In this document: positions 29,833 to 52,918 of the stretch, piece after piece
Layout: every line of letters begins with the position of its first letter
How positions within the stretch are numbered: the stretch's first letter is position 1
Source: Patescibacteria group bacterium
GTDB lineage: Bacteria; Patescibacteriota; Patescibacteriia; UBA9934; GWF2-40-263
Direction: 5' to 3'
Length of the DNA: 64,000 nt
Assembly (NCBI GenBank): GCA_004297215.1
Contig: SCUM01000001.1
Coordinates: forward strand, 78,282 to 142,281
Notes under the pieces: model-generated
What the model saw: the letters and a program-made list of their open reading frames with translations, nothing else
The model's database searches: none
What the model was told of the DNA's origin: nothing
Program-made: the position numbers and the translations under genes

Positions 29833-29883
29833 ACGTACGCTGCCCCTTGAATCGGACGGCGTTTCGTTGCAGAATGGAGCCCT

Positions 29884-30291
29884 ATGAAATCCGAGCATCT
29901 GATGGCGGACATCCCGTGCAAGGCGTTCGTCGAACGCGACGGGAAAATCCTGTTCGTCCAGGAAGCAGACGGTCCGTGGGCCCTGCCCGGAGGCCGCATC
30001 CATGTGGGCGAGATGCCGCGCGAGGCGTTGAAGAGGGAAATCCGGGAGGAGCTTGGCGTGGATATCGAGGTGGGCGATCCGTTCGACGTCACGGTGTTCA
30101 CGAGCAAGTCCGGGCTGGCGCATCTGGTGGTCGCGTTTCATGCGACAATCGCTGAGGGCCAGGAGCTCGTGGCGGACCCGAGTGAAGTCGCGGCCATCGA
30201 ATGGGTCGGGATCGAGGAGATTCTTACGAGGACCATGCACATCGGATCTCGCTCGATCATCGAACGGCTTGCGAAGCGGGGTACCCCTTGA
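29884..30291 (+). CDS. NUDIX hydrolase
   Basis: Nudix box GGRIHVGEMPREALKREIREELGV. RBS ggag. Confidence 0.8.
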   Translation: MKSEHLMADIPCKAFVERDGKILFVQEADGPWALPGGRIHVGEMPREALKREIREELGVDIEVGDPFDVTVFTSKSGLAHLVVAFHATIAEGQELVADPSEVAAIEWVGIEEILTRTMHIGSRSIIERLAKRGTP

Positions 30292-30332
30292 ACCTTCCGG
30301 CGATACGGGGCAGGATGGCAGTGGAGGTTGCC

Positions 30333-30644
30333 ATGAAGGAAATCCCGAAGCCGGGGACCGAACGGCTGAAGAAGGCGCTCATGGGGCACCCGGCCTTCAG
30401 CGATGTCGACCACGCGCGCCGGCCGGATTCGGTGGACGGGAGCGCATGGGAATGCGAAGCGAACGTGCTCGCGTTCTCCTACCGCGAGCGCCCGTACTTC
30501 GCCCATGTGGGCGACGAGGTCGTGCAGGTCACCCGCCCGGGCGGGTCCGGACGCGAGCGCATGGTCGGCCGGTTCGTCCGCACGGACGCGAGCGACCTCG
30601 CCCGCGCGCTCGCCGCGGCGATCGACGCGGCGGTGCACGAATGA
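30333..30644 (+). CDS. Hypothetical protein (103 aa)
   Basis: ATG preceded by GGAGG with a 5-nt spacer. GC3 bias present. No recognisable family. Confidence 0.4.
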   Translation: MKEIPKPGTERLKKALMGHPAFSDVDHARRPDSVDGSAWECEANVLAFSYRERPYFAHVGDEVVQVTRPGGSGRERMVGRFVRTDASDLARALAAAIDAAVHE

Positions 30645-30666
30645 ATCCATACGCAAGGAGGGACGC

Positions 30667-30960
30667 ATGCTGATCCTTGATTGTTCCGAGTGCCAGGCGA
30701 ACGCCTCCTGCGCGCTCGGGCAGAAGGCGCGCGCCGAGCCCTGTCCGGCGATCGAGCCGGGCCACTGCGGGCTCTCGATGCGGCACCAGTCGGTCGTTGC
30801 CAGGGAGCCGGGGCCGCAGATCTCCTTCGTGTGCGTGAAATGCGGCGCGCACGGGCTCGCCCGCACCACGCGCTCGCCCAGCGCCGAAAAGAAGGTCTCG
30901 TTCGCCGACCCGGTGCGCCCTACCGTCTCCGGCGGCGGGATCCCGGACACGCTCGAATGA
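30667..30960 (+). CDS. Cysteine-rich small protein (putative zinc ribbon)
   Basis: Strong RBS AAGGAGGG. CSECQANASC...CPAIEPGHC...CVKCGAHG. Confidence 0.45.
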   Translation: MLILDCSECQANASCALGQKARAEPCPAIEPGHCGLSMRHQSVVAREPGPQISFVCVKCGAHGLARTTRSPSAEKKVSFADPVRPTVSGGGIPDTLE

Positions 30961-31013
30961 CCTCGTACGCGCGCCTCGACCAGGGGCGCGTTTTTGTCTT
31001 ATGCTGTCCGGGT

Positions 31014-31217
31014 ATGACCGAACCGGGGAAGTACCGCCACTACAAGGGGAACGAGTACGAGGTAATCGGGCTCGCCAGGCATTCGGAAACGCTCGATAAT
31101 ATGGTCGTGTACCGTGCCTTGTACGGCTCCGGGGAGCTCTGGGTCCGCCCCAGGGCGATGTTTGAGGAGGAGGTCGAAGCGGGCGGCGTTCGCCAGCCGA
31201 GGTTCAAGCGGGTATGA
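31014..31217 (+). CDS. DUF1653-family small protein
   Basis: GKYRHYKGNEYEVIGLARHSETLDNMVVYRALYG. 67 aa. Confidence 0.6.
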   Translation: MTEPGKYRHYKGNEYEVIGLARHSETLDNMVVYRALYGSGELWVRPRAMFEEEVEAGGVRQPRFKRV

Positions 31218-31516
31218 GATACGACAAGCTGGTGCGCGACAAGATGCCGGAGCGCATCAGGGCGAAAGGGGAGGCATGCTCGTTTCATGTCGCGGACGAC
31301 GCGGAGTACTGGCAAAAGCTGAAGGCCAAGATGGCCGAGGAGATGGGCGAATTCGTGCGCGACGAGAGCGCGGACGAGGTGGCGGACATCCTGGAGGTGC
31401 TTGACGCCATCATCGCGTACAAGAAGTTCGACCGCGCCGAGATCGAGGCGATCAAGAAGCGAAAATTCGACGAGCGCGGCGGATTCGAGGGACGCATCAT
31501 CCTGGACGAGTCGTGA
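31214..31516 (+). CDS. MazG-like nucleotide pyrophosphohydrolase (phosphoribosyl-ATP pyrophosphohydrolase-like)
   Basis: MRYDKLVRDKMPERI...EEMGEFVRDESADEVADILEVLDAI...KKRKFDERGGF. ATGA overlap with the DUF1653 gene. Confidence 0.65.
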   Translation: MRYDKLVRDKMPERIRAKGEACSFHVADDAEYWQKLKAKMAEEMGEFVRDESADEVADILEVLDAIIAYKKFDRAEIEAIKKRKFDERGGFEGRIILDES

Positions 31517-31576
31517 GTTGACGGATCGTGCCAACGGCATCAAGCTGGCGGCACGTTCCTTTCATCGGGAGGCATC

Positions 31577-32197
31577 TTGGAACCGGATTACAAAGGACAG
31601 CTTTCGCTTCTCACGGGAGACGCGGATCCCACAGCGGCCATCCAGGCCGCCCGCACCGCGTTAGACAGGTTGTGCAAGGGATTCATGTCGTCCGAGTTGC
31701 GTGACGGGATGCTCCTGCGCGCGGCCGAGGAGGCCCGGCAGCAGCTCGTCGCGGTGCGTTCGGCCGGCGCGTATTGCGACCTGGCCGCGTTGATCGCCCC
31801 GTACGCGCGCCAGATCCTGGAGGTCGAGGAAGACCTGCATCTGCAGGAATACGTCGTCCTGCGCCTTCCCGCGGACCTGTTCGTGCAGGCCTTTCTCCAT
31901 GGCAAGGACGTGCGGGAAAAGTGGGAGCTCGCGTTCCTCATCGCGGGAGCGGAGCGCGTCCGAGACCTCATCAAGGACCTATGGGCCGCCGGCAACCTGG
32001 ATGACGCGGCGCTCCTGTACGCGTCGGCCTATTCGGAGGGACGTCGCGAGGACGCGCTCAGTAATTCGCGCGAAACGGCCTGCGACGATGTCCCGAAAGA
32101 CTTCCTCCGCGCGCTCATGGGTTACGACCGATGGCCGGATCCCAAGGCGGTAGCGGGCATCGACGAGTGGATCGCCGAGGAGATTGATCCGAAGTGA
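31577..32197 (+). CDS. Hypothetical protein (206 aa)
   Basis: TTG start with GGGAGG 5 nt upstream. Preceded by the duplicated leader module. No recognisable domain. Confidence 0.4.
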   Translation: MEPDYKGQLSLLTGDADPTAAIQAARTALDRLCKGFMSSELRDGMLLRAAEEARQQLVAVRSAGAYCDLAALIAPYARQILEVEEDLHLQEYVVLRLPADLFVQAFLHGKDVREKWELAFLIAGAERVRDLIKDLWAAGNLDDAALLYASAYSEGRREDALSNSRETACDDVPKDFLRALMGYDRWPDPKAVAGIDEWIAEEIDPK

Positions 32198-33728: not shown

Positions 33729-33856
33729 CTCGCCCCCGACGCGCCGTCGGGGGATTTTTGTCCTGTATCAGGCTGTGTTACGGTATTTCCTGAAGGGCAT
33801 CGGAGTTGACAAAACAGCCGTTTTCCGCTATGCTCCAGCGTTATTCTGAAGAATCT

Positions 33857-34960
33857 ATGATTAACAAAAACCTCCGTATTTCCGCGGTTGCCACGATGAT
33901 CGGCTTGTCCGGGTCCCTTGGGACCTTTGCGAGCGCCTCCGGGGTAAGCGTTCACACGAACGAGCGCAACCTCGCGCCGAGCGTCTCGTCCTGGTCGCGC
34001 AGCAATGGCGCGGACGTGAACGGCGACGGCACGATCCGCCTGCAGGATCGCGATGACGCTTCGGCTTCGACCGACGTCGCCGTGTCGAGTTCGCGCTCGG
34101 GCGATTACGCCTTGCTCGTGTCCTTCACGCGCGCCACCGGTTCCGGCCGCAATTCAGACTCCATCGCGGGCAAGCCGTATCTCTACGGCTACCTGATGGA
34201 CGGTCGCGACATCCTGGAGTACCTGCAGGACGATTCCATGACCCACCGCGAAGGCGGCGACTGGGGCGTGAGCTACGGCGTGTTCCGCATCCCGAGCGGA
34301 ACGGACAACATCCGGTATTTCCTGAACCAGGGTTCCCGCCGCGGCACGAGCGATGCCGGCCGTGAAGCGTGGTTCTATCGTCCGGGGCTGTTCATCACCG
34401 ACAGCCGTTCCGATGCCATGGACATCGTTGACGCGTATGAGCGTCGCCTGGACGACGTCGAGGACGCGCTCGACGGCCGTTCGTCCAACGACGACCGTTA
34501 CGACAACCCCAATTATGGCAACGGGAATTGTCCCAACGGGTATTGCGATGATGGTCTCACCGGCCCGCCCGTGTATTCCACCGGAACGCTCCTCAAGTGC
34601 CCGGGTCGCGCGGCCGTGTTCTCGGTCACGGGACGCCGCAGCATCCGCCTGTTTCCCAACGAGGACACGTTCTACGCCTGGGGGTACTCGTTCCAGGACG
34701 TCCGGACGATTTCCTGCGCCACGCTCGACCGCTTCGACATGGACGGGAGCTGGACGTACAGCCGCGACAGCCGGCTCATCAAGTTCACCGATTCCCCGGC
34801 CGTGTACACGCTCGACAACGGGCGCTACCTGCGCGGGATTCCCAACGAGCATACGGCCCGCGCCATGTACGGCTCCGACTGGGCCTCGCGCATCCGCCTG
34901 CTCTCGCCGTACGAGCGGTACAACTACGTGATTTCCCATCAGCATCCGAACCGCTACTAA
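33857..34960 (+). CDS. Secreted hypothetical protein
   Basis: Signal peptide MINKNLRISAVATMIGLSGSLGTFASA. Gly/Asp/Asn-rich middle (NPNYGNGNCPNGYCDDG). No recognisable family. Confidence 0.55.
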   Translation: MINKNLRISAVATMIGLSGSLGTFASASGVSVHTNERNLAPSVSSWSRSNGADVNGDGTIRLQDRDDASASTDVAVSSSRSGDYALLVSFTRATGSGRNSDSIAGKPYLYGYLMDGRDILEYLQDDSMTHREGGDWGVSYGVFRIPSGTDNIRYFLNQGSRRGTSDAGREAWFYRPGLFITDSRSDAMDIVDAYERRLDDVEDALDGRSSNDDRYDNPNYGNGNCPNGYCDDGLTGPPVYSTGTLLKCPGRAAVFSVTGRRSIRLFPNEDTFYAWGYSFQDVRTISCATLDRFDMDGSWTYSRDSRLIKFTDSPAVYTLDNGRYLRGIPNEHTARAMYGSDWASRIRLLSPYERYNYVISHQHPNRY

Positions 34961-36128: not shown

Positions 36129-36374
36129 TCATTGGCTGACCGGGACGCGTTGCGCCCACGCGTGTTCGCTCACCTCTCCCATGAGGGCGAGCGGCGGGTA
36201 GACGAACAGCACGGCGTTGCACGTTTCGCAGTAGTGGAACCCGACGGAGCAGGCGAACGGCGCCCCGGCCGTGAAGAAGTCCAGTCCGATCTTGCGGCCG
36301 GCGCACCATCGGCATGTCCTGGGCGCTCCGGCCTCGTCGTTGTGGAATTCGAGCGCTTCCTCGATCCGCCGCAT
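36129..36374 (-). CDS. Small zinc-ribbon-like hypothetical protein (81 aa)
   Basis: High GC3 in this frame. TCRWCAGRK...CSVGFHYCETCN are four Cys in two CxxC-like pairs. Start is uncertain. Confidence 0.4.
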   Translation of the reverse strand: MRRIEEALEFHNDEAGAPRTCRWCAGRKIGLDFFTAGAPFACSVGFHYCETCNAVLFVYPPLALMGEVSEHAWAQRVPVSQ

Positions 36375-36604
36375 CCGGAGCGACGGGAGCACGCGTTGCG
36401 GCTCGACCTGGCTCAGGTCGCGCGTTGGTTTCAGTTGCTTCTTCTTGCTGCGTCGGCTCACGCACGCTCCTCGAGTGGGGGAAAGGTCATGGGCGCCCCA
36501 TTGTGTCCGCGGATCCGGGAAGTTGTCAAAGGGATACGCCGTCTTGCGTCTCCTTGCCGTTTCCCCTACACTCCCGTCGTCTAAACGGAGCTCCGGCATC
36601 CCCT

Positions 36605-38683
36605 ATGCAGACCTGGAAAATCAAGCGCAACCATGGCGCTCAGCGCCCCGCCTCGCGCGGCGGTCATCCGCGCGTCGCCACCGCGCTTTTGCTCATCCTC
36701 ACCCTGGCGGGCGCGACATACGATTTTCCCGCGCTCTGGAACGGCTCCGCGTCGTTCGTAGAGGGGAAGACCGGCTGGAGCCTCCCGTCGCTCCCGGAGG
36801 ATCCGTACCGCCTGGGGCTCGACCTGCAGGGCGGCACCCATCTCGTGTACGAGGCGGACATGGCGGAGATCCCCGCCGGCGACCAGGACACGGCCCTCGA
36901 AGGGGTGCGCGACGTGATCGAGCGGCGGGTGAACGCGTTCGGCGTTGCCGAGCCCGTGGTGCAGACGATCACCGCCGGCGGCATCCACCGCCTCATCGTG
37001 GAGCTCGCCGGCGTGCTCGACGTGAACGCGGCGATTGAGCAGATCGGCGAGACGCCGGTGCTCGAGTTCAAGGAGCCGGCCACCGACGTCGGCCGCGAAC
37101 TCACCGCCGAGGAAAAAGCCGCGCTCGCGGCGCTGAATGCGCAGGAGCGCGCGGCGGCCGAGGCCCTGCTCTCGCGCGCCCGCGCGGGCGCGGCGTTCGA
37201 CGCCCTGGTCGCGGAGGCTTCCGTCGAGCCGGGCGCGGATGAGACGAAGGGCGTCTTGGGCGGGGCCGTGGCGGATTCCGCGCGCTACGGCGAGATCGTG
37301 AAGGCGATCCAGCGCAGCGGGGTGCGAGCGGGCGGCATCGTCCCGAAGGTGATCGAGACCCCGGAAGGGTTGAGCGTGGTGAAGTATCTCGGCCAGAAGC
37401 AGGACCGGGAGATGCAGCTGTCCCACATCTTGTTCTGCTTTGAAGGGAAGACCGGCTGCGTGAAGGACGTCCCCGCGCTCGACGCCTCGGTGCGCATGAC
37501 CGCGCTCAGGAAGGATCTCACGGCGGAGAATTTCGCTGAGAAGGCCACGGAACTTTCCGACGACCCGAGCGCGGCGCAAAACGGCGGCGACTTGGGCTGG
37601 GTGAAGCCGGGCGACACCGTGCTGGCGTTCGAACTCGCCGCGCGGCAGGTCGAGAAGGGGAAGATCTCCGAAGCCGTGGAGACCGATTTCGGCTACCACC
37701 TCATCTACAAGCGCGACGAGCGGGCGATCGCCACCTATCAGGTCCAGCGCGTGCTGCTGAAGCTCTCGAAGGACGCCGACGTGGTGCCCGACGCGAGCCC
37801 GTGGAAGAACACCGGGCTTTCCGGCAAGCACCTCGAGCGCGCGAACGTCGCCTTCGATCCTACCTCCGGCGCGCCGCACATCAGCCTGCAGTTCAACTCG
37901 GAGGGGGCCGAGCTGTTCGGCACGCTCACGCAGGCGCATGTGGGCGAGCCCATCGCCATCTTCCTCGACGGCGAGGCCATCTCCGTGCCCACGGTGCAGC
38001 AGGCGATTTATGGAGGCCAGGCCGTCATCAGCGGCACGTTCACGCTCCCCGAGGCCAAGCTTCTCGCCCAGCGCCTCAATGCCGGCGCCTTGCCCGTGCC
38101 CGTGAAGCTGCTGTCGCAGGAAACGGTCGGGCCCTCCCTCGGCGCCGCCTCGCTCGCGGCGAGCGTGAACGCCGCCCTGATCGGTTTCGCGCTGGTCGCC
38201 GCGTTCATGATCCTCGTGTACCGACTGCCGGGGCTGCTCGCGGGCGTGGCGCTCGTCCTCTACGCCGTGCTCAACCTCGCGGCCTACAAGCTGTTCGGCG
38301 TCACCGTCACCCTTTCGGGCATCGCCGGGTTCGTGCTGTCCCTGGGCATCGCCGTGGACGCCAACGTGCTCATCTTCGAGCGCATGCGCGACGAGTGGCG
38401 CGCGGGCCGCGACCTGTCGTCGTCGATCTCCGAAGGGTACCGCCGCGCCTGGGCGCCGATCCGGGACGGGCACCTCACCACGCTCATCTCCGCGCTCGTG
38501 CTGTATTTCTTCAGCTCCAGTTTCGTGAAGGGGTTCGCCCTCACGCTGGGCATCGGGGTGGCGCTGTCGCTGTTCACGGCGCTCACGGTGACCCACGCGT
38601 ATCTCGGCGCGGCCCGCTCCGCCAGGTTCCTTACGGCCCCGTGGCTCTACAGCCTTAAGCGTCCGACGACGGACCCCAAGTGA
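36605..38683 (+). CDS. secD: Protein translocase subunit SecD with an inserted parvulin-type (PpiC) peptidyl-prolyl isomerase domain
   Basis: The SecD N-terminus and C-terminal TM bundle (AVDANVLIFERMRDE) are typical. Between them, residues ~250-480 carry GGDLGWVKPGDTVLAFELAARQVEKGKISEAVETDFGYHLIYKR, a rotamase/PpiC signature. Confidence 0.9.
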   Translation: MQTWKIKRNHGAQRPASRGGHPRVATALLLILTLAGATYDFPALWNGSASFVEGKTGWSLPSLPEDPYRLGLDLQGGTHLVYEADMAEIPAGDQDTALEGVRDVIERRVNAFGVAEPVVQTITAGGIHRLIVELAGVLDVNAAIEQIGETPVLEFKEPATDVGRELTAEEKAALAALNAQERAAAEALLSRARAGAAFDALVAEASVEPGADETKGVLGGAVADSARYGEIVKAIQRSGVRAGGIVPKVIETPEGLSVVKYLGQKQDREMQLSHILFCFEGKTGCVKDVPALDASVRMTALRKDLTAENFAEKATELSDDPSAAQNGGDLGWVKPGDTVLAFELAARQVEKGKISEAVETDFGYHLIYKRDERAIATYQVQRVLLKLSKDADVVPDASPWKNTGLSGKHLERANVAFDPTSGAPHISLQFNSEGAELFGTLTQAHVGEPIAIFLDGEAISVPTVQQAIYGGQAVISGTFTLPEAKLLAQRLNAGALPVPVKLLSQETVGPSLGAASLAASVNAALIGFALVAAFMILVYRLPGLLAGVALVLYAVLNLAAYKLFGVTVTLSGIAGFVLSLGIAVDANVLIFERMRDEWRAGRDLSSSISEGYRRAWAPIRDGHLTTLISALVLYFFSSSFVKGFALTLGIGVALSLFTALTVTHAYLGAARSARFLTAPWLYSLKRPTTDPK

Positions 38684-38684
38684 T

Positions 38685-39590
38685 ATGGCCTTCAGCTTCA
38701 TCCGTCCGCGCCGCCTCTGGTTCGCCATTTCGGCCGTGCTGATCGGCGCCTCGCTCATGGCCCTCGGCCTGTTCGGGCTCAAGTTCGGCACCGACTTCAC
38801 GGGGGGGACGCTGCTCGAGCTCCGGTTCGCGTCGGGGCGCCCGGAAAACGCCGAACTCGCGGGCCTGTTCGCGAACGCCGGATTCCAAGGCGCCACGGTG
38901 CAACCCGCCGGGGAAGACCGCGCCCTCGTGCGTCTCCCTCCGCTCACCGAAGAGGAGCACCAGACGGCCCTCGCCGCCGTGAAGGCCGCGCACGAAGGCG
39001 CATCCGAGCTCCGGTTCAACTCCGTCGGACCGGTGATCGGCAAGGAGCTGCGCACCACGGCCGTGCTGGGCGTCGCCATCACGCTCCTGCTGATCGGACT
39101 CTACATCGCCTACGTGTTCCGCACGGTGAGCGACCCGGTGCCCAGCTGGAAGTATGCCGTGGTCACGCTCATCGCCGCCGCGCACGACGTGATCATCCCG
39201 CTCGGCCTGTTCGCCGTGCTCGGTCATTTCCGGGATTGGGAAGTGAACGCGGGATTCGTGGCCGCCGCGCTCACCATCCTCGGGTATTCCATCTCCGACA
39301 CCGTGGTGGTGTTCGACCGCGTGCGCGAGAACCTGTCGCGGGATTCCTCCGACGCGTTCGAGGACATCGTGGACCGTTCCGTGCAACAGACCGCCGTGCG
39401 CTCGTTCAACACCTCGTTCACGGCGCTCCTCGCCCTCGCCGCCATCCTCGCGTTCGGCGGCGACACCACCCGCCCGTTCGCCGCCGCCCTGTTCGCCGGC
39501 ATCGCGACCGGCACGTATTCGTCCATCTTCATCGCGAGCCCGCTGCTCGTGGAGTGGGAGAAGAGGAACAGGAAGGGATCGGGAGGGTGA
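38685..39590 (+). CDS. secF: Protein translocase subunit SecF
   Basis: GLKFGTDFTGGTLLEL...IIPLGLFAVLG...TVVVFDRVRENL. Starts 1 nt after the secD stop. Confidence 0.9.
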   Translation: MAFSFIRPRRLWFAISAVLIGASLMALGLFGLKFGTDFTGGTLLELRFASGRPENAELAGLFANAGFQGATVQPAGEDRALVRLPPLTEEEHQTALAAVKAAHEGASELRFNSVGPVIGKELRTTAVLGVAITLLLIGLYIAYVFRTVSDPVPSWKYAVVTLIAAAHDVIIPLGLFAVLGHFRDWEVNAGFVAAALTILGYSISDTVVVFDRVRENLSRDSSDAFEDIVDRSVQQTAVRSFNTSFTALLALAAILAFGGDTTRPFAAALFAGIATGTYSSIFIASPLLVEWEKRNRKGSGG

Positions 39591-39594
39591 TGAA

Positions 39595-39745
39595 GTGAAG
39601 GATCAAGGCCGGAAGGTTCTAAGGACCAAAGGAGACGTGAAAGAATTTATTGACGAAAAGACGAAGGTTTAAAACCTTCGTCTTTGAATTTCGGACTTTC
39701 ACGTTTCCTTTGGCCCTTTCAAACCCTTCATTCCTTGGTCCTTTC
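39595..39745. terminator. Long low-GC imperfect palindrome with a core rho-independent terminator after secF
   Basis: Core aaagacgaaggtt-ttaaaa-ccttcgtcttt (39657-39685). Outer arms ggaccaaaggagacgtgaaag / ctttcacgtttcctttggccc. Confidence 0.65.
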
Positions 39746-39767
39746 TTGTGCTATACTGTTCCCGACT

Positions 39768-41408
39768 ATGTCCTGGCTTTCCGCTTTCCTTGACGCGCGC
39801 ATCGACGTGCAGCTGTACGTGCTTACGGTCCTGTTCGGTTGGATAGGAACGGCCGCCGTGCTCGCGTGGGGGTTCGTCGAGATGTGGAAGAACCACCGTC
39901 AGGGGCTGTACGTGCAGGGGCTCCAGCACGTGTTGCTCGCGATCAACGTCCCGGCGATGACCGAACAGAGCCCGAAGGCGGTCGAGGCCCTGTTCTCGAA
40001 CCTGATCGGTTCCTTCAGCAACCTCATCTGGAAGGAAAAATGGCTGAAGGGCAAGGTCCAGCCCGTATTCTCGTTCGAGATCGCGTCCACGGAAGGGTAC
40101 ATCCAGTTTTACGTGCACACCCAGACCAAGTACCGCGACGTCATCGAGGCCAACGTGTACGCGCATTATCCCGAGGCGGAGATCGTCGAGGTGGAGGATT
40201 ATGCGGCCTCGGCGCCCACCAAGTATCCGGACGAGCATTATGAGGCTTGGGGGGCCGAAATGACCCTGAGCAAGGAAGAATTCTATCCGCTGCGCACGTA
40301 CGTGGATTTCGAGGACAAGCTCGCCGGGGAATTCCGCGACCCGCTCGGGCAGATGCTCGAAAGCTTCGGCAAGATGCGGCCCGGGGAACACCTGTGGATG
40401 CAGGTGCTGATTTCCCCTGGAAACAACGATTGGAAGGACAAGGGATTGGCCTTCATCGACGAGACCTACGGCAACGTGAAATCGCACAAGCCCGGCATGA
40501 TCGAGGCCGGGATGTCCGCGGCCCTGTCGATCCCCAACGCCATGCTCCAGGAGGTGTTCGGCGGCGCGAGCGAGGACGCGCACGCCAAGAAGGAAGTCGA
40601 CCCGTGGAAGGCGTTCAAGATCACGCCCGTCCAAAAGGAGATTGCCGAGGGGATCTTGCGGAAATGCGGGAAGGTGGGGTTCCCGAGCAAGGTGCGGCTG
40701 GTCTACGTCGCCCGCAAGGAAGCCTTCAATAAGGGTTCGCGCGCGCCCATCCTCAAAGGGATGCTCCAGCCGTATTCCCACCTGAACATGAATTCGTTCC
40801 GGTTTCACGGCTCCAGCGTGCCGAAGGACGATTATTTCTGGCAGCGATGGTCCTTGCCGAAGAAGCAGGGCCGTCTCGTGCGCGCGTTCCGCAAGCGCAG
40901 CTGGACCATCGGCGCCACCCCGAAGGTGCTGAACGCCGAGGAGCTCGCCACCATCTGGCATTTCCCGGCGATCGGGGTGAAGGCGCCTTTGGTGCGGAAA
41001 TCCGAGGCGAAGCGCGGCGAGCCGCCGGTGGACCTCCCCTTGGATTCCGAAGGGGCATTGCCGAAGTTCGTGCGCCGCTCGGAGCCGGAGCCGGATGCGC
41101 ATGGCGACCATGGCCACGGGCATGTCGAAGCCGCGCCTGACGCGACGCACGCCCTCCCGGGACTCCCCACGATCGACGTTCCGGCCGTATCGATGCCTGC
41201 CATGCCCATCTCCGACGCGCCGCCTCGCCGAAGGCCGGTCCAGGCGGAGCCCGAAGCCGAAGAACGCGAGCCGGGCTTGGATGCGACCGACATGGGTCCG
41301 CCCGCGGGCGTGGTGCTCCCGGGCCCGCCGCCCGGGTGGAAGGAAGAGACGAGGGGGGATGGCCCGGCCTCGTCTGACGCCGAGTCGCCGCCGAACCTTC
41401 CGGTATGA
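39768..41408 (+). CDS. Hypothetical membrane-anchored protein (2 N-terminal TM, large soluble domain, Pro-rich tail), partner of a T4CP-like ATPase
   Basis: TM1/TM2 (SWLSAFLDARIDVQLYVLTVLFGWIGTAAVLAWGFV). Soluble region has no recognised family. Ends TIWHFP...Pro-rich. The stop overlaps the downstream start (ATGA). Confidence 0.5.
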   Translation: MSWLSAFLDARIDVQLYVLTVLFGWIGTAAVLAWGFVEMWKNHRQGLYVQGLQHVLLAINVPAMTEQSPKAVEALFSNLIGSFSNLIWKEKWLKGKVQPVFSFEIASTEGYIQFYVHTQTKYRDVIEANVYAHYPEAEIVEVEDYAASAPTKYPDEHYEAWGAEMTLSKEEFYPLRTYVDFEDKLAGEFRDPLGQMLESFGKMRPGEHLWMQVLISPGNNDWKDKGLAFIDETYGNVKSHKPGMIEAGMSAALSIPNAMLQEVFGGASEDAHAKKEVDPWKAFKITPVQKEIAEGILRKCGKVGFPSKVRLVYVARKEAFNKGSRAPILKGMLQPYSHLNMNSFRFHGSSVPKDDYFWQRWSLPKKQGRLVRAFRKRSWTIGATPKVLNAEELATIWHFPAIGVKAPLVRKSEAKRGEPPVDLPLDSEGALPKFVRRSEPEPDAHGDHGHGHVEAAPDATHALPGLPTIDVPAVSMPAMPISDAPPRRRPVQAEPEAEEREPGLDATDMGPPAGVVLPGPPPGWKEETRGDGPASSDAESPPNLPV

Positions 41409-43165
41409 CGAACCCCGCCCACGACCACGAGAACGAGATCACGTATTTCGCCCGTACCAACTTCCGCGGCCAGCTGCGGAAGTTCGGCGTGAAGACCGAC
41501 GACCGGCGCCGGCACGTGTACATCATCGGGAAGACGGGCATGGGCAAGACCACGCTCATGGAGAACATGGTGATCGGCGACATCTACGCCGGGCACGGCT
41601 GCTGCTACGTGGATCCGCACGGCGACACGGCCGAGCGGCTGCTCGATTACATCCCGAGCTGGCGCATCAACGACGTGGTGTACTTCAACCCGGCCGACAT
41701 GGATTACCCGGTGGGGTTCAACATCCTCGAATCGGTCGACCCCAAGAACAGGCACCTGGTGGCCTCCGGCATGATGGGGGTGTTCAAGAAGATCTGGGAG
41801 AACCTGTGGAGCGCGCGCATGGAGTACATCCTCAACAACTCCATCCTGGCGCTCTTGGACAACCCCGGCTCCACGCTCCTGGGCATCAACCGCATGCTCT
41901 CCGACGCCGACTACCGCAAGCGCATCGTGAGCAACGTGAAGGACCCGATCGTGAGCCAGTTCTGGCTCACGGAGTTCGCGAGCTACAACGAGAAGTACGC
42001 GCAGGAGGCCGTGGCCCCGATCCAAAACAAGATCGGGCAGTTCCTGTCCGCGAGCATCATCCGCAACATCGTCGCGCAGGTGAAGTCCACCATCAACATC
42101 CGGGAGATCATGGACGGGGGGAAGATCTTCATCGTGAACCTGTCCAAGGGCCGCATCGGCGAGGACAACTCGCGCCTCCTTGGGGGGCTGCTCATCACCA
42201 AGCTCCAGCTCGGGGCCATGGAACGCGTGGACATCCCGGAGACGGAGCGCAAGGACTTCTACCTGTACGTGGACGAGTTCCAGAACTTCGCCGTGGAGTC
42301 CTTCGCCAACATCCTCTCCGAGGCGCGCAAGTACCGCCTATGCCTCACCTTGGCGCACCAGTACATCGCCCAGCTCTCCGAGGAGGTGCGCGACGCCGTG
42401 TTCGGCAACGTCGGCACGCTCATCGCCTACCGCGTGGGCGCGCCCGACGCCGAGGAGCTCGAGAAGGAATTCGCGCCGCGGTTCGTGGTGGAGGACATCA
42501 TCAACCTTCCCAAGTACAACGTGTACCTGAAGCTCCTCATCGACGGGGTCACGAGCCAGCCGTTCTCCGCCATCACGCTCCCGCCCATCGCGCAGCGCAC
42601 CGGGAGCTCCGACCGCGTGATCAAGGTGAGCCGCGAACGCTACGCCACGGCGCGCGCGGAGATCGAGGAGAAGGTGCTCAAGTGGACCGGCATGGAGGAA
42701 GGGGTGGACGTGGAGAAGCTGCTTGCCGCGGCCGAGGAGAAGAAACAGGCGGCCAAGGGGTCGAGGAAGCCGGCGCACAAGTACAACTGTACCCGCTGCG
42801 GCAAGGAGTTCACGCTGCCGGTGGAGCTCGATCGCAGCCGCCCCATTTACGACGACGAGTGCATCGAGATCGTCCGGGCCGAGCGCAAGGGAGGGAAGCC
42901 GGCATCGAAGCCGCCAGTCGTGAGCCGTCCGCCGGGCGCCGCGGCGACGGTCGCGGCGAAACCGGTTCCGGCCAAGACGGTCCCTCAAAAGCCCGCGAAG
43001 CTCTCTGACGGCGTGATCGTGGAGAAGATCATTACCGATCCAGCCGTGTCCCTTGCCGCGCTCACGGCGGCCAAGGAAGAGCGCGCGGCGAAGGAGAAGA
43101 AGGAGTTCGGTGGGAAGCCGAGGATCGTGGCTTCGAAACCCGGCGACCTGCCGTCGTTCGACTGA
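41405..43165 (+). CDS. TraG/VirD4/TraD-like (type IV coupling protein family) P-loop ATPase with C-terminal zinc ribbon and A/K/P-rich tail
   Basis: Walker A IIGKTGMGKTT, DPHGD, Walker B FYLYVDEFQNF, TLAHQYIAQL. C-terminal NCTRCGKEF...DDECIE zinc ribbon. No TM domain of its own. Confidence 0.65.
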   Translation: MTNPAHDHENEITYFARTNFRGQLRKFGVKTDDRRRHVYIIGKTGMGKTTLMENMVIGDIYAGHGCCYVDPHGDTAERLLDYIPSWRINDVVYFNPADMDYPVGFNILESVDPKNRHLVASGMMGVFKKIWENLWSARMEYILNNSILALLDNPGSTLLGINRMLSDADYRKRIVSNVKDPIVSQFWLTEFASYNEKYAQEAVAPIQNKIGQFLSASIIRNIVAQVKSTINIREIMDGGKIFIVNLSKGRIGEDNSRLLGGLLITKLQLGAMERVDIPETERKDFYLYVDEFQNFAVESFANILSEARKYRLCLTLAHQYIAQLSEEVRDAVFGNVGTLIAYRVGAPDAEELEKEFAPRFVVEDIINLPKYNVYLKLLIDGVTSQPFSAITLPPIAQRTGSSDRVIKVSRERYATARAEIEEKVLKWTGMEEGVDVEKLLAAAEEKKQAAKGSRKPAHKYNCTRCGKEFTLPVELDRSRPIYDDECIEIVRAERKGGKPASKPPVVSRPPGAAATVAAKPVPAKTVPQKPAKLSDGVIVEKIITDPAVSLAALTAAKEERAAKEKKEFGGKPRIVASKPGDLPSFD

Positions 43166-43166
43166 T

Positions 43167-43817
43167 ATGCCCGAGCGGGTCTCGTTCACGACGCAGGACG
43201 GCGTGGAAATCGTCGGGGACTGGTATCCGGCTCCCGGGAAGCGGTTCGCGATCCTGCTCCACATCCGTCCGGCCACCAAGGAAAGCTGGAGGCGTTGGGC
43301 GGAAATCCTCCGGGAGCGCGGCGTGTCCGTGCTCGCCTACGACCAGCGCGGCCATGGGGAGAGCACGATGGGCGGCACGATCGATTTCGAGAAGATGACT
43401 GACGACGAGAGCCGCGGCAAGCGCCTCGACCTTGAGGCCGCGTTCGCCTGGCTTGAGGGAAAAGGGGCGACGGACGGGAACACGTTCCTGATGGGCGGAT
43501 CGATCGGGGCCAACCTCGCCATCCGGTTCCTGTCGGAACATCCCGGCGTCCCGACGGCGATCGCGTTGTCGCCCGGCCTCGACTACCGGGGCGTCACGAC
43601 CGGGGATGCGATCTCGAACCTGTCCGGCGTCCAGCAGGTCGTCCTCATCGCGAGCGATGACGACCAGCACGACAGTTTCGCGAGCTGCGCGAAGCTGCAT
43701 GAGCTCGCTCCCGAACGCACCACGTTCCTGCGCCAGACGGGCCTTGGACACGGGACGCACATGCTTGAAAAAGACCCGGCGCTGTTTGACGCGATCCTCG
43801 CACGCCTTTCCCTGTGA
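43167..43817 (+). CDS. Alpha/beta hydrolase (dienelactone-hydrolase-like)
   Basis: ILLHIRPATKESW...DQRGHGES...LMGGSIGANLA (GxSxG)...GLGHGTHM. Confidence 0.65.
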   Translation: MPERVSFTTQDGVEIVGDWYPAPGKRFAILLHIRPATKESWRRWAEILRERGVSVLAYDQRGHGESTMGGTIDFEKMTDDESRGKRLDLEAAFAWLEGKGATDGNTFLMGGSIGANLAIRFLSEHPGVPTAIALSPGLDYRGVTTGDAISNLSGVQQVVLIASDDDQHDSFASCAKLHELAPERTTFLRQTGLGHGTHMLEKDPALFDAILARLSL

Positions 43818-44599
43818 CCCTCCTGCAAGCCGCGGTCCTCGGCATCGTCCAAGGGCTTACCGAATTCCTGCCCGTCTCCAGCTCCGGCCACCTCATCCTG
43901 GTCCCGGCCTTGTTCGGTTGGGAGCCGCATCCGGTCGCGTTTGACGCGGCGATCCACCTGGGCACCTTCTTCGCGGTCGTATTCGCGTTGCGAGACGACG
44001 TGAAGCGGATCCTTCGGGGCCTGTTCGTGCCAGGCGACGCCTGGGGAGGGCTCGGTTGGATGGTGGTCGTCGCCACGCTGCCGGTGCTGCTCAGCGGCTT
44101 CCTCATCGGGGAGGTGTGGAAGCCCGACCTGCGCGACCCGCGCCTCATCGTGGGCACGCTCGCGTTTTGGGGCGTCGCGCTCTACCTCGTGGACCGGTTC
44201 GCGCCGTCCTCGGAAGGGAAGGCGGAGAAGGCCGGCTGGAGCAGGTCGCTGCTCATGGGCCTCGCGCAGGTCCTCGCCTTGCTCCCCGGCACTTCGCGCA
44301 GCGGGGTCACGATCACGGCCGGCCGCGCGCTCGGGCTCACGCGCGAAGCCGCGGCCCGCTTTTCGTTCCTGCTTTCCATCCCGGCCGTGGCCGCGGCGAG
44401 CGCGCTTTCGCTCGTGCAGGTCGGCACGGGCGCGGCCGAGGTCCCGGCCCTGCCGCTCGCCATGGGGATCATCGCCTCGGCCGTGTCGGGCGCGCTTGCC
44501 ATCCGCTGGCTCATCAGGCTCATGCGCACCGCCACCTACGCCCCGTTCGCGCTCTACCGCCTCGCGCTCGCCGCGCTCGCGGCCATCGTGCTGCTGTGA
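43814..44599 (+). CDS. uppP: Undecaprenyl-diphosphatase (BacA/UppP)
   Basis: GLTEFLPVSSSGHL...PGTSRSG. GTG start overlapping the upstream stop. Confidence 0.9.
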   Translation: MTLLQAAVLGIVQGLTEFLPVSSSGHLILVPALFGWEPHPVAFDAAIHLGTFFAVVFALRDDVKRILRGLFVPGDAWGGLGWMVVVATLPVLLSGFLIGEVWKPDLRDPRLIVGTLAFWGVALYLVDRFAPSSEGKAEKAGWSRSLLMGLAQVLALLPGTSRSGVTITAGRALGLTREAAARFSFLLSIPAVAAASALSLVQVGTGAAEVPALPLAMGIIASAVSGALAIRWLIRLMRTATYAPFALYRLALAALAAIVLL

Positions 44600-44644: not shown

Positions 44645-46147
44645 ATGCAACGCCTCAAACGCCTTTTTCCGCTCCTCCTCGCGGCGTTCGTCCTCGTCGC
44701 GCTGTTTGCGCCCAAGGCCTGGCGCGCGATGACGCCCGGATACGACGCGAGCCGCCTCGTGACCCCGGCGCAGGCCGCGGCCCTGTTTGCCGCGGGCAAC
44801 ACGCTCACGGTGGAGCGCGGGAGCGCCACGGTGCGCCGCGCGGACGGCGCGAGCGAGACCGTGACGGACGAGGCGTTGATGGGCGTGGGCGACGCCGTGA
44901 CCGTGTCCGAGGACGGGTTCGCGACGCTGCGGTGGTTCGACGATTCCGTGAGCCGCCTTTCCGGCGGCGCCGAGCTTCGCATTTCCGCCGCGGATTACGA
45001 CCCGGAGGAGATCAGCGAGACGCATGTGGAGTTCGAGGTGGTGAAGGGGGCCGTGTGGTCCAAGGCCATGAACCTGGTGGACGCGGATTCCACCTTCGAG
45101 GGGCGAGCAGGCGACGTGGTGGCCGGGGTGCGCGGGACCGCGTTCAACCTGTCCGTCACGGACGGATCCGTGCTCGTGCAGCCGGTCGAGCATGCGCTCG
45201 CGCTGCGAGAGGACGGGGGGACCGAGCGCGTGGTGGTGGCCGGGGAGAGTGCGCGGTTCGCCCACGGGCGCGCCGGAGCGCTCGCGTCCATGCGCCTGAG
45301 CGCGACCGACCCCGCGGACGCGAAGTCGGATTGGTTCTTGAAGAACGAAGCGCTCGACGGCCAGGCGATCGCCGGCCTCGCAAGCGCCATGCGGGAGCGC
45401 CTGCGCCAGCGCGTGGGCGCGCTGCCGGGCGAATCGGACTGGGACAAGAAGGAGCGCGCGCTCGCCGAGGCGCTTTCCGCGAGCTCGGGCGCGGCGCGCG
45501 TGCGCGCGCAGGCCGCCATCGCCTCCATGCGCGTCTTTGAGTTCGCGCTGCGCGCTCGCGCCGGCACGGCCGTTGCCGCGGACGCGGAAGGCGTCCTCAC
45601 GGGCATCGAGGCGGCCGTCGCGCAGGTGAAGGGGAGCGACCTGCCCGAGCCGGAGAAGCGGTCGCTCATCGCCGCCATGGTCGCCGAGACCAAGGCCGCG
45701 GACCGCGCGCTCGCCGACGCGCTTCCCGAGGACGCGTCCGCGTACGCGGCTCGGCTCAAGGTACGCGAGATGGCGCGCGCGCTCGTCCTCGACCAGGAAG
45801 AGCGCGAACGCCTCATTGAGCTCTACCAGCGCCACAACCTGTTCGAGCTGGGCGACTCGCTCAAGCACGGCTGGACCGACGCGTGCGAATGCAAGGCCGA
45901 GATCGAGGAATACCGCCAGCGTTCGCTCACGGACAAGGGGTTCCGCCGCATGTTCGAGCTGTTCCTCGCCGACATCCGCGCCAAGTGCCCGGGTTCCGAC
46001 GCGGCCAAGATCCGCTTCGCGCCCGTCGCCTCGCCCAAGGCCGCGACGATCGCCCCGGCCGCCATCCCGGCCCCCGTCCAGGAACCCGCGCCGCCCAAGG
46101 ACCCGTACGCGCAGCCGTCCGCCGGATCGTCCGGCTATCCGTACTAG
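44645..46147 (+). CDS. FecR-domain protein with N-terminal signal anchor and long Ala-rich helical C-terminal region
   Basis: DAVTVSEDGFATLRWFDDSVSRLSGGAELRI...VVKGAVW...VRGTAFNLSV is a FecR-like fold. Immediately upstream of the CHASE2 cyclase. Confidence 0.6.
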   Translation: MQRLKRLFPLLLAAFVLVALFAPKAWRAMTPGYDASRLVTPAQAAALFAAGNTLTVERGSATVRRADGASETVTDEALMGVGDAVTVSEDGFATLRWFDDSVSRLSGGAELRISAADYDPEEISETHVEFEVVKGAVWSKAMNLVDADSTFEGRAGDVVAGVRGTAFNLSVTDGSVLVQPVEHALALREDGGTERVVVAGESARFAHGRAGALASMRLSATDPADAKSDWFLKNEALDGQAIAGLASAMRERLRQRVGALPGESDWDKKERALAEALSASSGAARVRAQAAIASMRVFEFALRARAGTAVAADAEGVLTGIEAAVAQVKGSDLPEPEKRSLIAAMVAETKAADRALADALPEDASAYAARLKVREMARALVLDQEERERLIELYQRHNLFELGDSLKHGWTDACECKAEIEEYRQRSLTDKGFRRMFELFLADIRAKCPGSDAAKIRFAPVASPKAATIAPAAIPAPVQEPAPPKDPYAQPSAGSSGYPY

Positions 46148-49627: not shown

Positions 49628-49751
49628 ACGAAGGCCTTCAGGCCGCAGTGAAGGAACCTCGTCTGGAGTCCATCAGACGTTTGTCCTGGGATGATCGTCT
49701 GGAGGTATCCCAACGAGGATCCTTCGTCAGCCGTTCAGTCTCAGGATGACA
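49617..49751. repeat. About 135-nt MITE/REP-like element, copy B (TIR TTGTCATCCTGA...TCAGGATGACAA)
   Basis: About 80% identity to copy A (4848-4983). Sits exactly between convergent mnmA and a FecR-like gene, and both genes end in ...LSS* encoded by TTGTCATCCTGA. Confidence 0.7.
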
Positions 49752-50391
49752 ATAAATGGAAGAATTTGGCGTAAAACGCGGCGCCGGCGCTCGTGTTCGC
49801 GTCGAACGCGAATCCCTCCACGGACAGGCCCGGTCGCTCCGTGACGCGTTGCGCCCCGACGGCGACGATGGCGCTGTCGTCAACGAACAGGATCGGGAGC
49901 GGCGCGTCGAAGGGAATGATTTCCACCACATGGCGGAAACTATAGTTGATGACCGACATGGAGGCGCCGCTTGGAAGCTGCGTGTCGGTCGCCTCGGTGG
50001 TGACGGAGAGGATGGGCGAGGAGGGGTCGGACGCGGCCGCGAGGCGGCCTTGCACGAGTCGGACGACCGGGTGCGACGCAGAGAGGTCGGCCATGAGCAG
50101 GTCCGTGCGCTCGTCGAGCCCCAGCCGCACCCCCGCGACCGACAGCTCCGCGTAGCCGCCGGCTCCGATGAGGACGATCTCGCCGCGCCGCAGGCGCTCC
50201 CCGACGGTCGCCGGGCGCGTCTTGCCCGCCGCGTCCACGACCACCTCGCCGTCCGCGACGAGGACGACCGCTTCCACGGCAGGTCCACGGTCCGCTCCCG
50301 CCCACGGGGAGCCGAATCTCTGGCCGACAAGCAGGGTCGCCACCAGGATCGCGAACAGCAGTGGAGGGAGATGCCGCTTCATGCCTGGCAT
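49741..50391 (-). CDS. Secreted FecR-like domain protein
   Basis: Signal peptide MKRHLPPLLFAILVATLLVG. VLVADGEVVVDAAGKTRPATVGERLRRGEIVLIGAGGYAELSVAGVRLGLDERTDL. Paralogous flavour to 44645. Start alternative at 50382. Confidence 0.55.
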   Translation of the reverse strand: MPGMKRHLPPLLFAILVATLLVGQRFGSPWAGADRGPAVEAVVLVADGEVVVDAAGKTRPATVGERLRRGEIVLIGAGGYAELSVAGVRLGLDERTDLLMADLSASHPVVRLVQGRLAAASDPSSPILSVTTEATDTQLPSGASMSVINYSFRHVVEIIPFDAPLPILFVDDSAIVAVGAQRVTERPGLSVEGFAFDANTSAGAAFYAKFFHLLSS

Positions 50392-50401
50392 GGTAGCATG
50401 G

Positions 50402-50685
50402 ATGCATAATCCGCCTGATCCCGATATGGCCCTTCTCGAGTTTTACGGCAAGGAATGCCCCCACTGCGTCACCATGATGCCCCTTGTGGATAAGCTGATT
50501 TCCGAGGGGTTCGACATCAAGAAGCACGAGACCTGGCACGATGAGGCCAATGCCGAGAAGCTGAAGGAATACGACCGGGGCCTGTGCGGCGGGGTGCCGT
50601 TTTTCTTCAATACCGCGTCCAAGCAGCATATCTGCGGGGAGGCGGACGAAAAGACGCTTCGGAAATGGGCTGAAGGGAAAAAAGT

Positions 50686-50689
<4 letters not shown>
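50402..50689 (+). CDS. Thioredoxin/glutaredoxin-like small protein
   Basis: CPHC active site (EFYGKECPHCVTMMPL) and cis-Pro region (GVPFFF). About 95 aa. Start 50402 or 50426. Confidence 0.6.

Positions 50690-52918
<2,229 letters not shown>

Follow-up and report, generated by a model that had tools for sequence, protein, structure and literature searches.

The 64,000-nt stretch of DNA analyzed here (the window; GC content ~65%), which reads as core chromosome of a member of the Patescibacteria, carries two adjoining genes that, judging from sequence and fold comparisons, are best read as the parts of one split type IV coupling protein (T4CP) and not as an ATPase with an unrelated partner. Gene 1 (NCBI EPO34_00570) encodes a single-pass membrane protein with a cytoplasmic DUF8128 domain, the putative N-terminal anchor or adaptor half, and gene 2 (EPO34_00575) a soluble T4CP-type P-loop ATPase, the putative C-terminal motor half. 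On balance, we favor the view that the two polypeptides form a membrane-tethered motor, probably handling DNA, that was exapted from coupling in type IV secretion systems (T4SSs). Genes 1 and 2 overlap by 4 nt, as an earlier note on this DNA had stated, with ATGA common to both open reading frames (ORFs) (...CCG GTA TGA / ATG ACG...), and their GC content is similar to that of the surrounding genome.

The evidence for a split protein comes from relatives in which the two parts lie on one chain. A tblastn search of plasmids with the gene-2 ATPase returned 339 records at 27-41% identity, among them a plasmid of Embleya sp. NBC_00896 on which the match is the C-terminal half of an 812-aa T4CP (WP_331738717.1); the N-terminal 400 aa of this protein are colinear with gene 1. 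Like the pair, the Embleya protein comprises one transmembrane (TM) helix, DUF8128, a PPxxxP linker and the T4CP ATPase, and its gene lies in a cluster ordered PrgI, VirB4-like ATPase, T4CP, replication-relaxation protein and NlpC/P60. Searching with the Embleya N-terminal half retrieved 100 actinobacterial proteins, most with PF26449 (DUF8128) and many of those also with PF10412, PF01935 or PF12696 in the same chain. When aligned with these fused T4CPs by hhalign, the gene-1 alignment matched columns 60-390 (probability 96.2%, E 2.5e-9) and the gene-2 alignment (range 29-425) columns 405-738 (probability 100%, E 1.5e-45), while the EPPVxLP motif that closes the DUF8128 domain of gene 1 corresponded to the interdomain linker of the fused proteins. 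Because genes 1 and 2 match the N- and C-terminal halves of a single chain, contiguously and in order, the pair is read as a split coupling protein. The actinomycete proteins differ from the pair not only in being single chains but also in residing in PrgI/VirB4/relaxase/NlpC-P60 clusters on plasmids or integrative and conjugative elements (ICEs), and in lacking a zinc ribbon, long disordered tails and any conserved motif at the C-terminus; identity in the ATPase is ~33%.

A second split form was found on a plasmid of the haloarchaeon Halorussus limi (NZ_CP096663), where the gene for a 376-aa protein, matched to gene 1 by hhalign (probability 94.9%, E 4.5e-8), runs into the start of a T4CP-like gene of 1007 aa (WP_248653158.1 and WP_248653266.1). 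The order of the two overlapping genes is that of the window, and the ATPases are 31.5% identical; the Halorussus pair is nonetheless archaeal and plasmid-borne, adjoins a second large ATPase and a primase-polymerase, and has different ATPase extensions. DUF8128 is thus fused to, or directly precedes, a T4CP-type ATPase in the Patescibacteria loci, in Actinobacteria (fused) and on the Halorussus plasmid (adjacent). The closest relative of gene 2 outside the Candidate Phyla Radiation (CPR), at 40.7% identity, is a stand-alone T4CP-like protein of 395 aa without a TM domain, encoded on the Sulfitobacter mediterraneus plasmid NZ_CP081110 (locus L086, 6986-8173); no DUF8128 partner accompanies it, and its gene is flanked by a recombinase gene on one side and transposase genes on the other.

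The assignment of gene 2 itself to the T4CPs, proposed in the earlier note as a protein of VirD4/TraG/TrwB type, was borne out by hidden Markov model (HMM) searches. Two T4CP families of Pfam exceeded their cut-offs, TrwB_AAD_bind (PF10412, 43.1 bits against 20.5) and TraG-D_C (PF12696, 27.2 bits against 22), with PF02534 just under its own (18.6 bits against 20.1) and DUF87 borderline. No FtsK_SpoIIIE match was obtained from Pfam, and matches to the NCBIfam models for TraD, VirD4, CedD and VirB4 were all sub-threshold. The best fold matches were DotL, TrwB and Cagβ, and DotL and TrwB were also retrieved, weakly, by sequence from the PDB. All four motifs listed from the sequence are present and invariant in 30 homologs, namely Walker A (GKTGMGKTT, aa 42-50), DPHGD (aa 70-74), Walker B (YVDEFQNF, aa 288-295) and the HQY motif (AHQYIAQL, aa 317-324). 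Between Walker A and Walker B lies a predicted all-helical insert (~aa 113-223, by secondary structure prediction; the structure model has a mean predicted local distance difference test score, pLDDT, of 55). Gene 2 contains no hydrophobic segment (maximum Kyte-Doolittle value 1.38), in agreement with the earlier reading that it lacks a TM segment; the N-terminal TM domain that T4CPs carry in the same chain is absent, the TM helix being on gene 1 and, in the fused actinobacterial relatives, in cis.

Several other ATPase classes were considered and rejected. A robust assignment to FtsK or HerA, named in the earlier note as the competing class, was not obtained: gene 2 lacks the combination of motor and γ domain (binding FtsK-orienting polar sequences, KOPS) of FtsK/SpoIIIE translocases, as well as the HerA central domain with HAS barrel and NurA/Sir2-type partner of HerA helicases. 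Membership of the VirB4/TrbE/TraC clade was dismissed on a match to TIGR00929 of 21.7 bits against a cut-off of 643, which covers only the P-loop, T4CP profiles and structures scoring higher. The set of EccE, EccC (a multi-domain FtsK-like ATPase), EccB and EccD that characterizes type VII secretion was likewise not found. A replacement of FtsK was considered as well; FtsK has been reported in Saccharibacteria transcriptome papers.

Gene 1 departs further from its first description. It had been called a protein with two TM helices, yet from the ATG at 39768 it has a single TM-length hydrophobic segment (~aa 14-38; Kyte-Doolittle maximum 1.85, the sole segment above 1.4), and a second would exist only if an unlikely upstream TTG at 39684 were the start. 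The AlphaFold2 (AF2) model places helices at residues 2-9, an 8-residue N-terminal helix, and 12-51. On the positive-inside rule, the K, H and R residues that follow the TM helix suggest an N-out/C-in topology. The soluble domain, formerly described as uncharacterized, corresponds to Pfam DUF8128, has a VirB4-N-domain-like fold and represents the N-terminal half of the fused actinobacterial coupling proteins. PF26449 is a precomputed annotation on the exact gene-1 protein and on nearly all its homologs; local Pfam and NCBIfam scans gave no match for gene 1, nor did a sequence-profile search of the PDB, and a search of one library of papers found no mention of DUF8128. A profile search with gene 1 yielded 2,684 clusters at 50% identity.

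Structure prediction, which the earlier note had proposed for this domain, gave a confident core, in which most residues of the stretches aa 20-240 and 280-410 have a pLDDT above 90, followed by a disordered tail (aa 416-546). Ten TrwK chains headed the Foldseek list with this model (probability 0.97-1.0), EccE3 and EccE5 being the next-best fold matches. Since a P-loop is absent from gene 1 and the C-domain structure of VirB4 is matched by gene 2, the part of TrwK matched by gene 1 is presumably the N-terminal domain, and by fold comparison gene 1 qualifies as a VirB4-type N-terminal domain. An identification of gene 1 with TrsD was rejected, as pGO1 TrsD and TrsE show no similarity to it (hhalign probability against TrsD 0.5%).

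Both proteins end in long disordered tails closed by short motifs. The Pro-rich tail first noticed in gene 1 was confirmed, with Pro at 24 of 121 residues, and in 117 of 120 homologs, as well as in the distant loci L081 and L085, the motif [PS]xNLP[VIF] is found at the C-terminus or no more than 3 residues from it. For gene 2, the tail is rich in A, K and P as originally described (A23, K20 and P16 of 146 residues); 112 of 120 homologs end in FD or FE, and a K/R run of at least six occurs in 75 of 120. The zinc ribbon noted ahead of this tail as CxxC...C is indeed present, with C462, C465 and C486 all invariant, though it is incomplete in the window protein, where the near-invariant C483 is replaced by Asp. 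The full CxxC-x17-CxxC form is found in 117 of 120 gene-2 homologs, 37 of which have two or three copies. The conserved C-terminal motifs of both proteins (nt 41388-41405 and 43139-43162), which follow the disordered tails, are specific to Patescibacteria and absent in the actinobacterial and haloarchaeal relatives.

Conservation was assessed over 80 GTDB species loci, all from Uhrbacteria or Patescibacteria. Homologs number more than 8000 for gene 2 and 1822 for gene 1, and the pair is adjacent in every informative locus: gene 2 directly follows gene 1 in 77 of the 80, the other three being contig ends, and the median spacing is ~4 nt (72 loci). A pairing of this kind goes well past what chance would give. 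Together with four distant lineages, in which gene 1 retains 29-38% identity and the order is secD(PPIase)-secF-[0-2 inserted genes]-DUF8128-T4CP (PPIase, peptidyl-prolyl isomerase), these loci show that the pair is kept as neighbors in related genomes, a point on which the earlier note had let its reading depend. All loci with sufficient upstream sequence have secD and secF ahead of the pair; secD was found there in 72 of 80 loci, and in most of the other eight the locus starts too close to gene 1. Further downstream, uppP accompanies the pair in 38 of 80 related loci. Measured against the window proteins, median identity reaches 74.8% for gene 2, 57.9% for SecD, 53.4% for SecF, 48.3% for gene 1 and 44.9% for UppP. 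When gene 1, gene 2, SecD and SecF are compared locus by locus, gene 2 ranks as the most conserved in 65 of 66, a degree of conservation not usual for a T4CP. The patescibacterial pair is vertically inherited, chromosomal, located after secDF and under unusually strong purifying selection. A scan of IMG/VR found no relatives, and on this ground a phage origin was rejected. In three distant loci, a gene of ~380 aa with Sigma70_r4 and, faintly, HARE-HTH (helix-turn-helix) similarity lies between secF and the DUF8128 gene (L081 6799-7959, L083 6830-7897, L085 1536-2684). A check for its counterpart in the window found only region-4 similarity to sigma-factor genes at ~60.7 and 62.9 kb; with no counterpart beside the window pair, it was rejected as a part of the module.

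The relation of the pair to T4SSs is central to its interpretation. No T4SS, relaxase, integrase, VirB4, pilus or com genes were detected among the 40 window ORFs scanned, which upholds the statement that no relaxase, VirB4 or other T4SS parts are nearby; the association with VirB4/mating-pair formation (MPF) genes and a relaxase that marks a T4CP was accordingly not seen in the window, the rest of the source genome being outside view. In a published census, T4CP homologs were reported in 2,918 of 3,035 Patescibacteria assemblies, only 148 of them near virB4, with VirB4 in 2,417 assemblies (PMC12102498). The same study reported that in S. epibionticum t4cp is non-essential although the T4SS is essential, and its authors stated that exaptation "cannot be ruled out" (PMC12102498). 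Wang et al. found no recognizable coupling protein in the essential T4SS cluster. Eight Uhrbacteria genomes with a verified pair were looked up in Table S1 of the census (PMC12102498). Three are listed as VirB4-positive and five, of 0.75-1.12 Mb, as VirB4-negative: RIFCSPHIGHO2_01_FULL_63_20 (L001, the closest relative of the window), RIFOXYB12_FULL_58_10, RIFCSPLOWO2_01_FULL_47_17, CG10_..._48_16 and CG_4_9_14_3_um_filter_36_7. Likewise, Table S3 lists for GW2011_GWF2_39_13 (1.16 Mb) a high-coverage T4CP match and no VirB4, TrsD or VirB3. As these are draft metagenome-assembled genomes (MAGs), the absence of VirB4 is no proof, yet the pattern still favors a T4SS-independent role in this lineage.

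The strongest competitor is a classical role, in which the pair would be the dedicated coupling protein of a Patescibacteria-type (MPF-FATA-like) T4SS encoded elsewhere and would recruit DNA or effector proteins to its channel. We regard this as rather unlikely, albeit as an alternative to be taken seriously. The actinobacterial and haloarchaeal homologs sit within T4SS or conjugation clusters, t4cp genes are often unlinked from virB4, just as cedD is unlinked from cedA and cedB, and 80% of Patescibacteria assemblies contain VirB4, as do the three pair-bearing Uhrbacteria given above. Set against this are the five VirB4-negative pair carriers, the ~500 more assemblies that contain T4CPs than contain VirB4, and the dispensability of t4cp in S. 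epibionticum alongside an essential T4SS (PMC12102498). Moreover, the rate at which gene 2 evolves is below that of SecD or SecF, unlike what is seen in accessory T4SS parts.

The position after secDF raises another possibility, namely that the ATPase ring and its EccE/VirB4-N-like anchor serve protein translocation or the biogenesis of the envelope together with SecDF or some other membrane machine, in the manner of EccC and EccE in type VII secretion. The secD(PPIase)-secF-pair order, which holds in all 84 informative loci down to ~30% gene-1 identity, with uppP downstream in about half, speaks for such a role, as do the EccE3 and EccE5 matches of gene 1 and the established ability of T4CPs to recruit protein substrates in effector-translocating T4SSs. 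We nevertheless consider it improbable: the zinc ribbon and poly-K/R tails point to nucleic acid, the relatives outside the CPR have no link to Sec genes, several lineages have genes inserted between secF and the pair (the Sigma70_r4/HARE-HTH gene, a Bax1-I gene), and in the window a strong hairpin and a separate promoter-like element stand between secF and gene 1.

This hairpin is the long low-GC palindrome that the earlier note had placed before the pair. Its local GC content of 0.43 and a minimum free energy (MFE) of -76.2 kcal/mol as RNA (z -8.06) agree with that description, and it occurs once in the window. An Rfam scan assigned it to no family, returning only sub-threshold matches to miRNA-precursor models, and a simple promoter/terminator scan did not flag it as a terminator; the same scan did not call the -10-like element described below, which has no -35 element. 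Long hairpins of comparable size and unrelated sequence occupy the same spacer position in L006, L008, L022, L023 and L065. More broadly, near-perfect hairpins of 40-55 bp with unrelated sequences recur in the secF-gene 1 spacers of many Uhrbacteria (L002, L006, L008, L013, L022, L023, L028, L064, L065). The hairpin is probably a secF terminator or insulator. Downstream of it, an extended -10-like element, TGcTATACT, ends 10 nt before the gene-1 ATG, which suggests a leaderless or near-leaderless mRNA for the pair; TGnTAnAAT is found ~10 nt upstream of the gene-1 ATG also in L002, L006, L008, L013, L022, L023 and L028. On this reading, the spacer would first end or insulate secF transcription and then provide the pair with a promoter of its own, producing an mRNA of leaderless type.

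Under the reading that we favor, that of a split, membrane-tethered motor, the pair would be expressed from one, probably leaderless, mRNA, with ATGA coupling yielding a stoichiometry of ~1:1. Six anchor subunits would hold the ATPase, a predicted hexameric ring, at the cytoplasmic side of the membrane, by analogy with the way in which VirB3 and the VirB4 N-domain, or pIP501 TraI, may hold their ATPases. ATP hydrolysis would then drive or gate the passage of a polymer, most probably DNA; a DNA substrate is suggested by the T4CP ancestry, the zinc ribbon, the K/R-rich tails (75/120 homologs) and the CedD precedent. Exaptation in this lineage has probably allowed the machine to do without a VirB4-type T4SS.

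A number of points weigh against this proposal. The structure model of gene 2 is poor, the window protein lacks both the fourth zinc-ribbon Cys and the K/R run, and binding of the two products to each other would be supported indirectly, through the fusions. The DUF8128-like protein of Halorussus has no TM segment, so membrane anchoring is not universal in the family. The neighbors secDF and uppP are envelope and secretion genes and not genes of DNA metabolism, and Patescibacteria already possess comEC-dependent transformation (PMC10633639). Some of the VirB4-negative calls, which derive from draft MAGs in one HMM census, may be false negatives, and a VirB4 cluster elsewhere in the source genome would not show in a 64-kb view.

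Comparison with characterized systems provides partial precedents. In the Gram-positive conjugative plasmids pIP501 (TraI and TraJ) and pGO1 (a 154-aa ORF and TrsK), a T4CP without a TM domain directly follows a small membrane protein proposed as its anchor, and in pGO1 the ORF, with 2-3 TM helices, overlaps TrsK by 4 nt, as in the pair. The anchoring of TraJ by TraI in pIP501 is a precedent for a T4CP anchored in trans (PMC12857230). In contrast to gene 1, these anchors are small proteins with 2-3 TM helices and no DUF8128 or VirB4-N-like domain, and both plasmids encode a full conjugation operon with a relaxase. The archaeal DNA import systems Ced and Ted offer a different parallel, as CedD and TedD are, like gene 2, chromosomal, relaxase-independent VirD4-like ATPases. 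CedD is unlinked from the other system genes in Sulfolobus, has some orthologs without a TM domain, and is required experimentally for DNA import (PMC11823120). Gene 2 matches the NCBIfam CedD model weakly, at the level of the P-loop (22.8 bits, cut-off 600), and no DUF8128 partner has been described for CedD, whose partners CedA and CedB have no equivalents seen in the window.

Two further families were compared with the pair. VirB4 (TrwK), together with VirB3, combines the VirB4 N-domain fold with a VirB3-like membrane helix, as gene 1 does; the pair is set apart from VirB4 and TrsD by gene 2, which matches T4CP and not VirB4 profiles. The canonical T4CPs TrwB, VirD4, DotL and Cagβ share with gene 2 the nucleotide-binding domain, the Walker motifs and a TraG-D_C region, and their helical insert would have a counterpart in the one predicted for gene 2, but they have their own N-terminal domain with two TM helices, lack a VirB4-N-like domain and are linked to relaxosomes or effectors. 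A further observation concerns VirB4 in this phylum, which is found beside a TrsD matching PF11130 (TraC_F_IV), for example as genes 669 and 670 of GCA_000996355.1 (Table S3, PMC12102498); the TrsD matches in that table are separate genes adjoining virB4, and TrsD is described as a remote homolog of the N-terminal part of VirB4 (PMC12102498). With TrsD and VirB4 on the one hand and DUF8128 and T4CP on the other, both T4SS-family ATPases appear in the phylum as pairs of an N-domain gene and an ATPase gene.

An anti-phage defense ATPase (MADS mad8-like, DndH/DptH-like or HerA-like) or the remnant of an ICE is scarcely credible and was rejected on gene context: although PADLOC gave a mad8 match (1.5e-14, 52 bits) better than the Pfam T4CP matches of gene 2, along with weak HerA and DndH matches, and the closest relative outside the CPR lies between transposases on the Sulfitobacter plasmid, MADS is described as an 8-gene operon and no other MADS, Dnd, Sir2 or nuclease partner was present among the scanned window ORFs, gene 1 had no match in the PADLOC scan, the GC content does not stand out from the genome around it, 80 species have the pair at one fixed chromosomal position, with very high identity and with no integrase or relaxase, and no relatives were found in IMG/VR.

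In a Pfam scan of 40 ORFs of the window, genes were either housekeeping or without a match (9 of 40); those identified encode ClpB, a GT4 transferase, DnaB, PBP1a, α2-macroglobulin, MurC, SecA, Ham1, DUF1294, SecD (with a PpiC PPIase insert), SecF, the pair, an α/β hydrolase, UppP, a CHASE2 cyclase, MnmA, LigA, GatA, Lgt and DnaG. One tRNA was found, and no further Rfam family. The features discussed here are collected in Table 1. The α/β-hydrolase gene begins 1 nt past the gene-2 stop codon and so probably belongs, in this genome, to the same operon as the pair, with which it is not known to be conserved.

Table 1. Coordinates of the split coupling protein genes, their parts and the adjoining features in the window.
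Feature	Coordinates	Strand	Description
Gene 1	39768..41408	+	546 aa; EPO34_00570; single-pass membrane protein with cytoplasmic DUF8128; putative anchor/adaptor half
Gene-1 TM helix	39807..39881	+	~aa 14-38; Kyte-Doolittle, AF2 helix 12-51
Gene-1 DUF8128 domain	39921..41042	+	~aa 52-425; VirB4-N-terminal-domain-like α+β fold; closes with conserved EPPVxLP
Gene-1 disordered Pro-rich tail	41043..41405	+	aa 426-546; pLDDT <50; 24 Pro/121 residues; ends PPNLPV (nt 41388-41405)
Gene 2	41405..43165	+	586 aa; EPO34_00575; soluble T4CP-type P-loop ATPase; putative motor half
Gene-2 ATPase core	41483..42679	+	aa 27-425; Walker A nt 41528-41551, Walker B nt 42266-42289, AHQY motif; invariant columns
Gene-2 zinc ribbon	42788..42862	+	aa 462-486; CxxC...x17...DxxC; weak matches zf_Tbcl_2, TIGR04272
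Gene-2 A/K/P-rich disordered tail	42893..43162	+	ends ...PGDLPSFD; family consensus ...GQ[ST]IxF[DE]
Long palindrome	39621..39718	.	nested inverted repeats I1-I3, nearly perfect, ~100 nt; inner perfect 14-bp stem 39657-39685, then TTTGAATTT
Extended -10-like element TGcTATACT	39749..39757	+	ends 10 nt before gene-1 ATG; read directly from sequence
secD	36314..38683 (ORF coordinates)	+	likely true start ~36605 (MQTWK...); upstream neighbor of pair
secF	38685..39590	+	Pfam SecD_SecF_C 6e-53; directly upstream of pair
α/β-hydrolase gene	43167..43817	+	Pfam Hydrolase_4/Abhydrolase_1; starts 1 nt past gene-2 stop codon
uppP (BacA)	43814..44599	+	Pfam BacA 1e-73; 4-nt overlap with hydrolase gene

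Some neighboring genes have features of their own. SecD matches SecDF_P1_head, SecD_1st and SecD_SecF_C of Pfam and, at aa 355-467 of the ORF, Rotamase, which marks an inserted PpiC-type PPIase domain. This insert is kept in distant relatives (L081 4027-5754, L083 2790-4850 and L084 4914-6992, with two copies in L084) and has the look of a foldase built into the Sec accessory complex that these monoderm bacteria possess. A gene for a PBP1a-type transglycosylase/transpeptidase (12753-14834) lies directly upstream of a gene for a 1974-aa bacterial α2-macroglobulin (14867-20791); the pairing of α2-macroglobulin with a penicillin-binding protein is a known arrangement, here in a tiny CPR genome. 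ORFs of 100-500 aa without a Pfam match are located at 20845-22188, 29454-32197, 33806-34960, 44645-46147 and 49741-50943, and local GC minima of 0.55 and 0.53 occur at 5-6 kb and 28-29 kb against a background of 0.65.

Patescibacteria account for a large share of bacterial diversity and cannot make nucleotides. A more far-reaching version of the favored reading, which we put forward only tentatively, is that Patescibacteria possess in the pair a membrane translocation motor that stands on its own, is inherited vertically and has lost its need for a VirB4-type T4SS. Such a motor could be the missing ATP-driven DNA importer or exporter, serving the scavenging of nucleotides from hosts, or a chromosome-handling pump. 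If so, the anchor would show that coupling proteins ancestrally carried a VirB4 N-domain, linking VirB4, VirD4 and, via EccE, type VII accessory architectures. The analysis also suggests that the VirB4 and VirD4 architectures are linked in evolution.

Almost all Patescibacteria encode "orphan" T4CP homologs, the role of which is an acknowledged open point (PMC12102498). The pair is not categorically new, being a T4CP, but it is an undescribed split variant with a newly recognized partner domain and an apparently T4SS-independent status in the core genome. What is added here is, first, DUF8128 as a partner for the orphan T4CP, the gene upstream of the T4CP never having been flagged in the published census (Table S3 of PMC12102498); second, a structural rationale in the form of a membrane-anchored VirB4-N-like domain; third, Rosetta-stone fusion evidence that the two proteins act as one; and fourth, the observation that the pair persists, very strongly constrained, in Uhrbacteria genomes for which VirB4 is reported absent. 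Should the pair prove simply to serve a distant T4SS locus as its coupling protein, the outcome would be a useful annotation and no surprise. If it is carried by the genetically tractable Saccharibacteria, a role for CPR coupling proteins without a T4SS becomes testable there.

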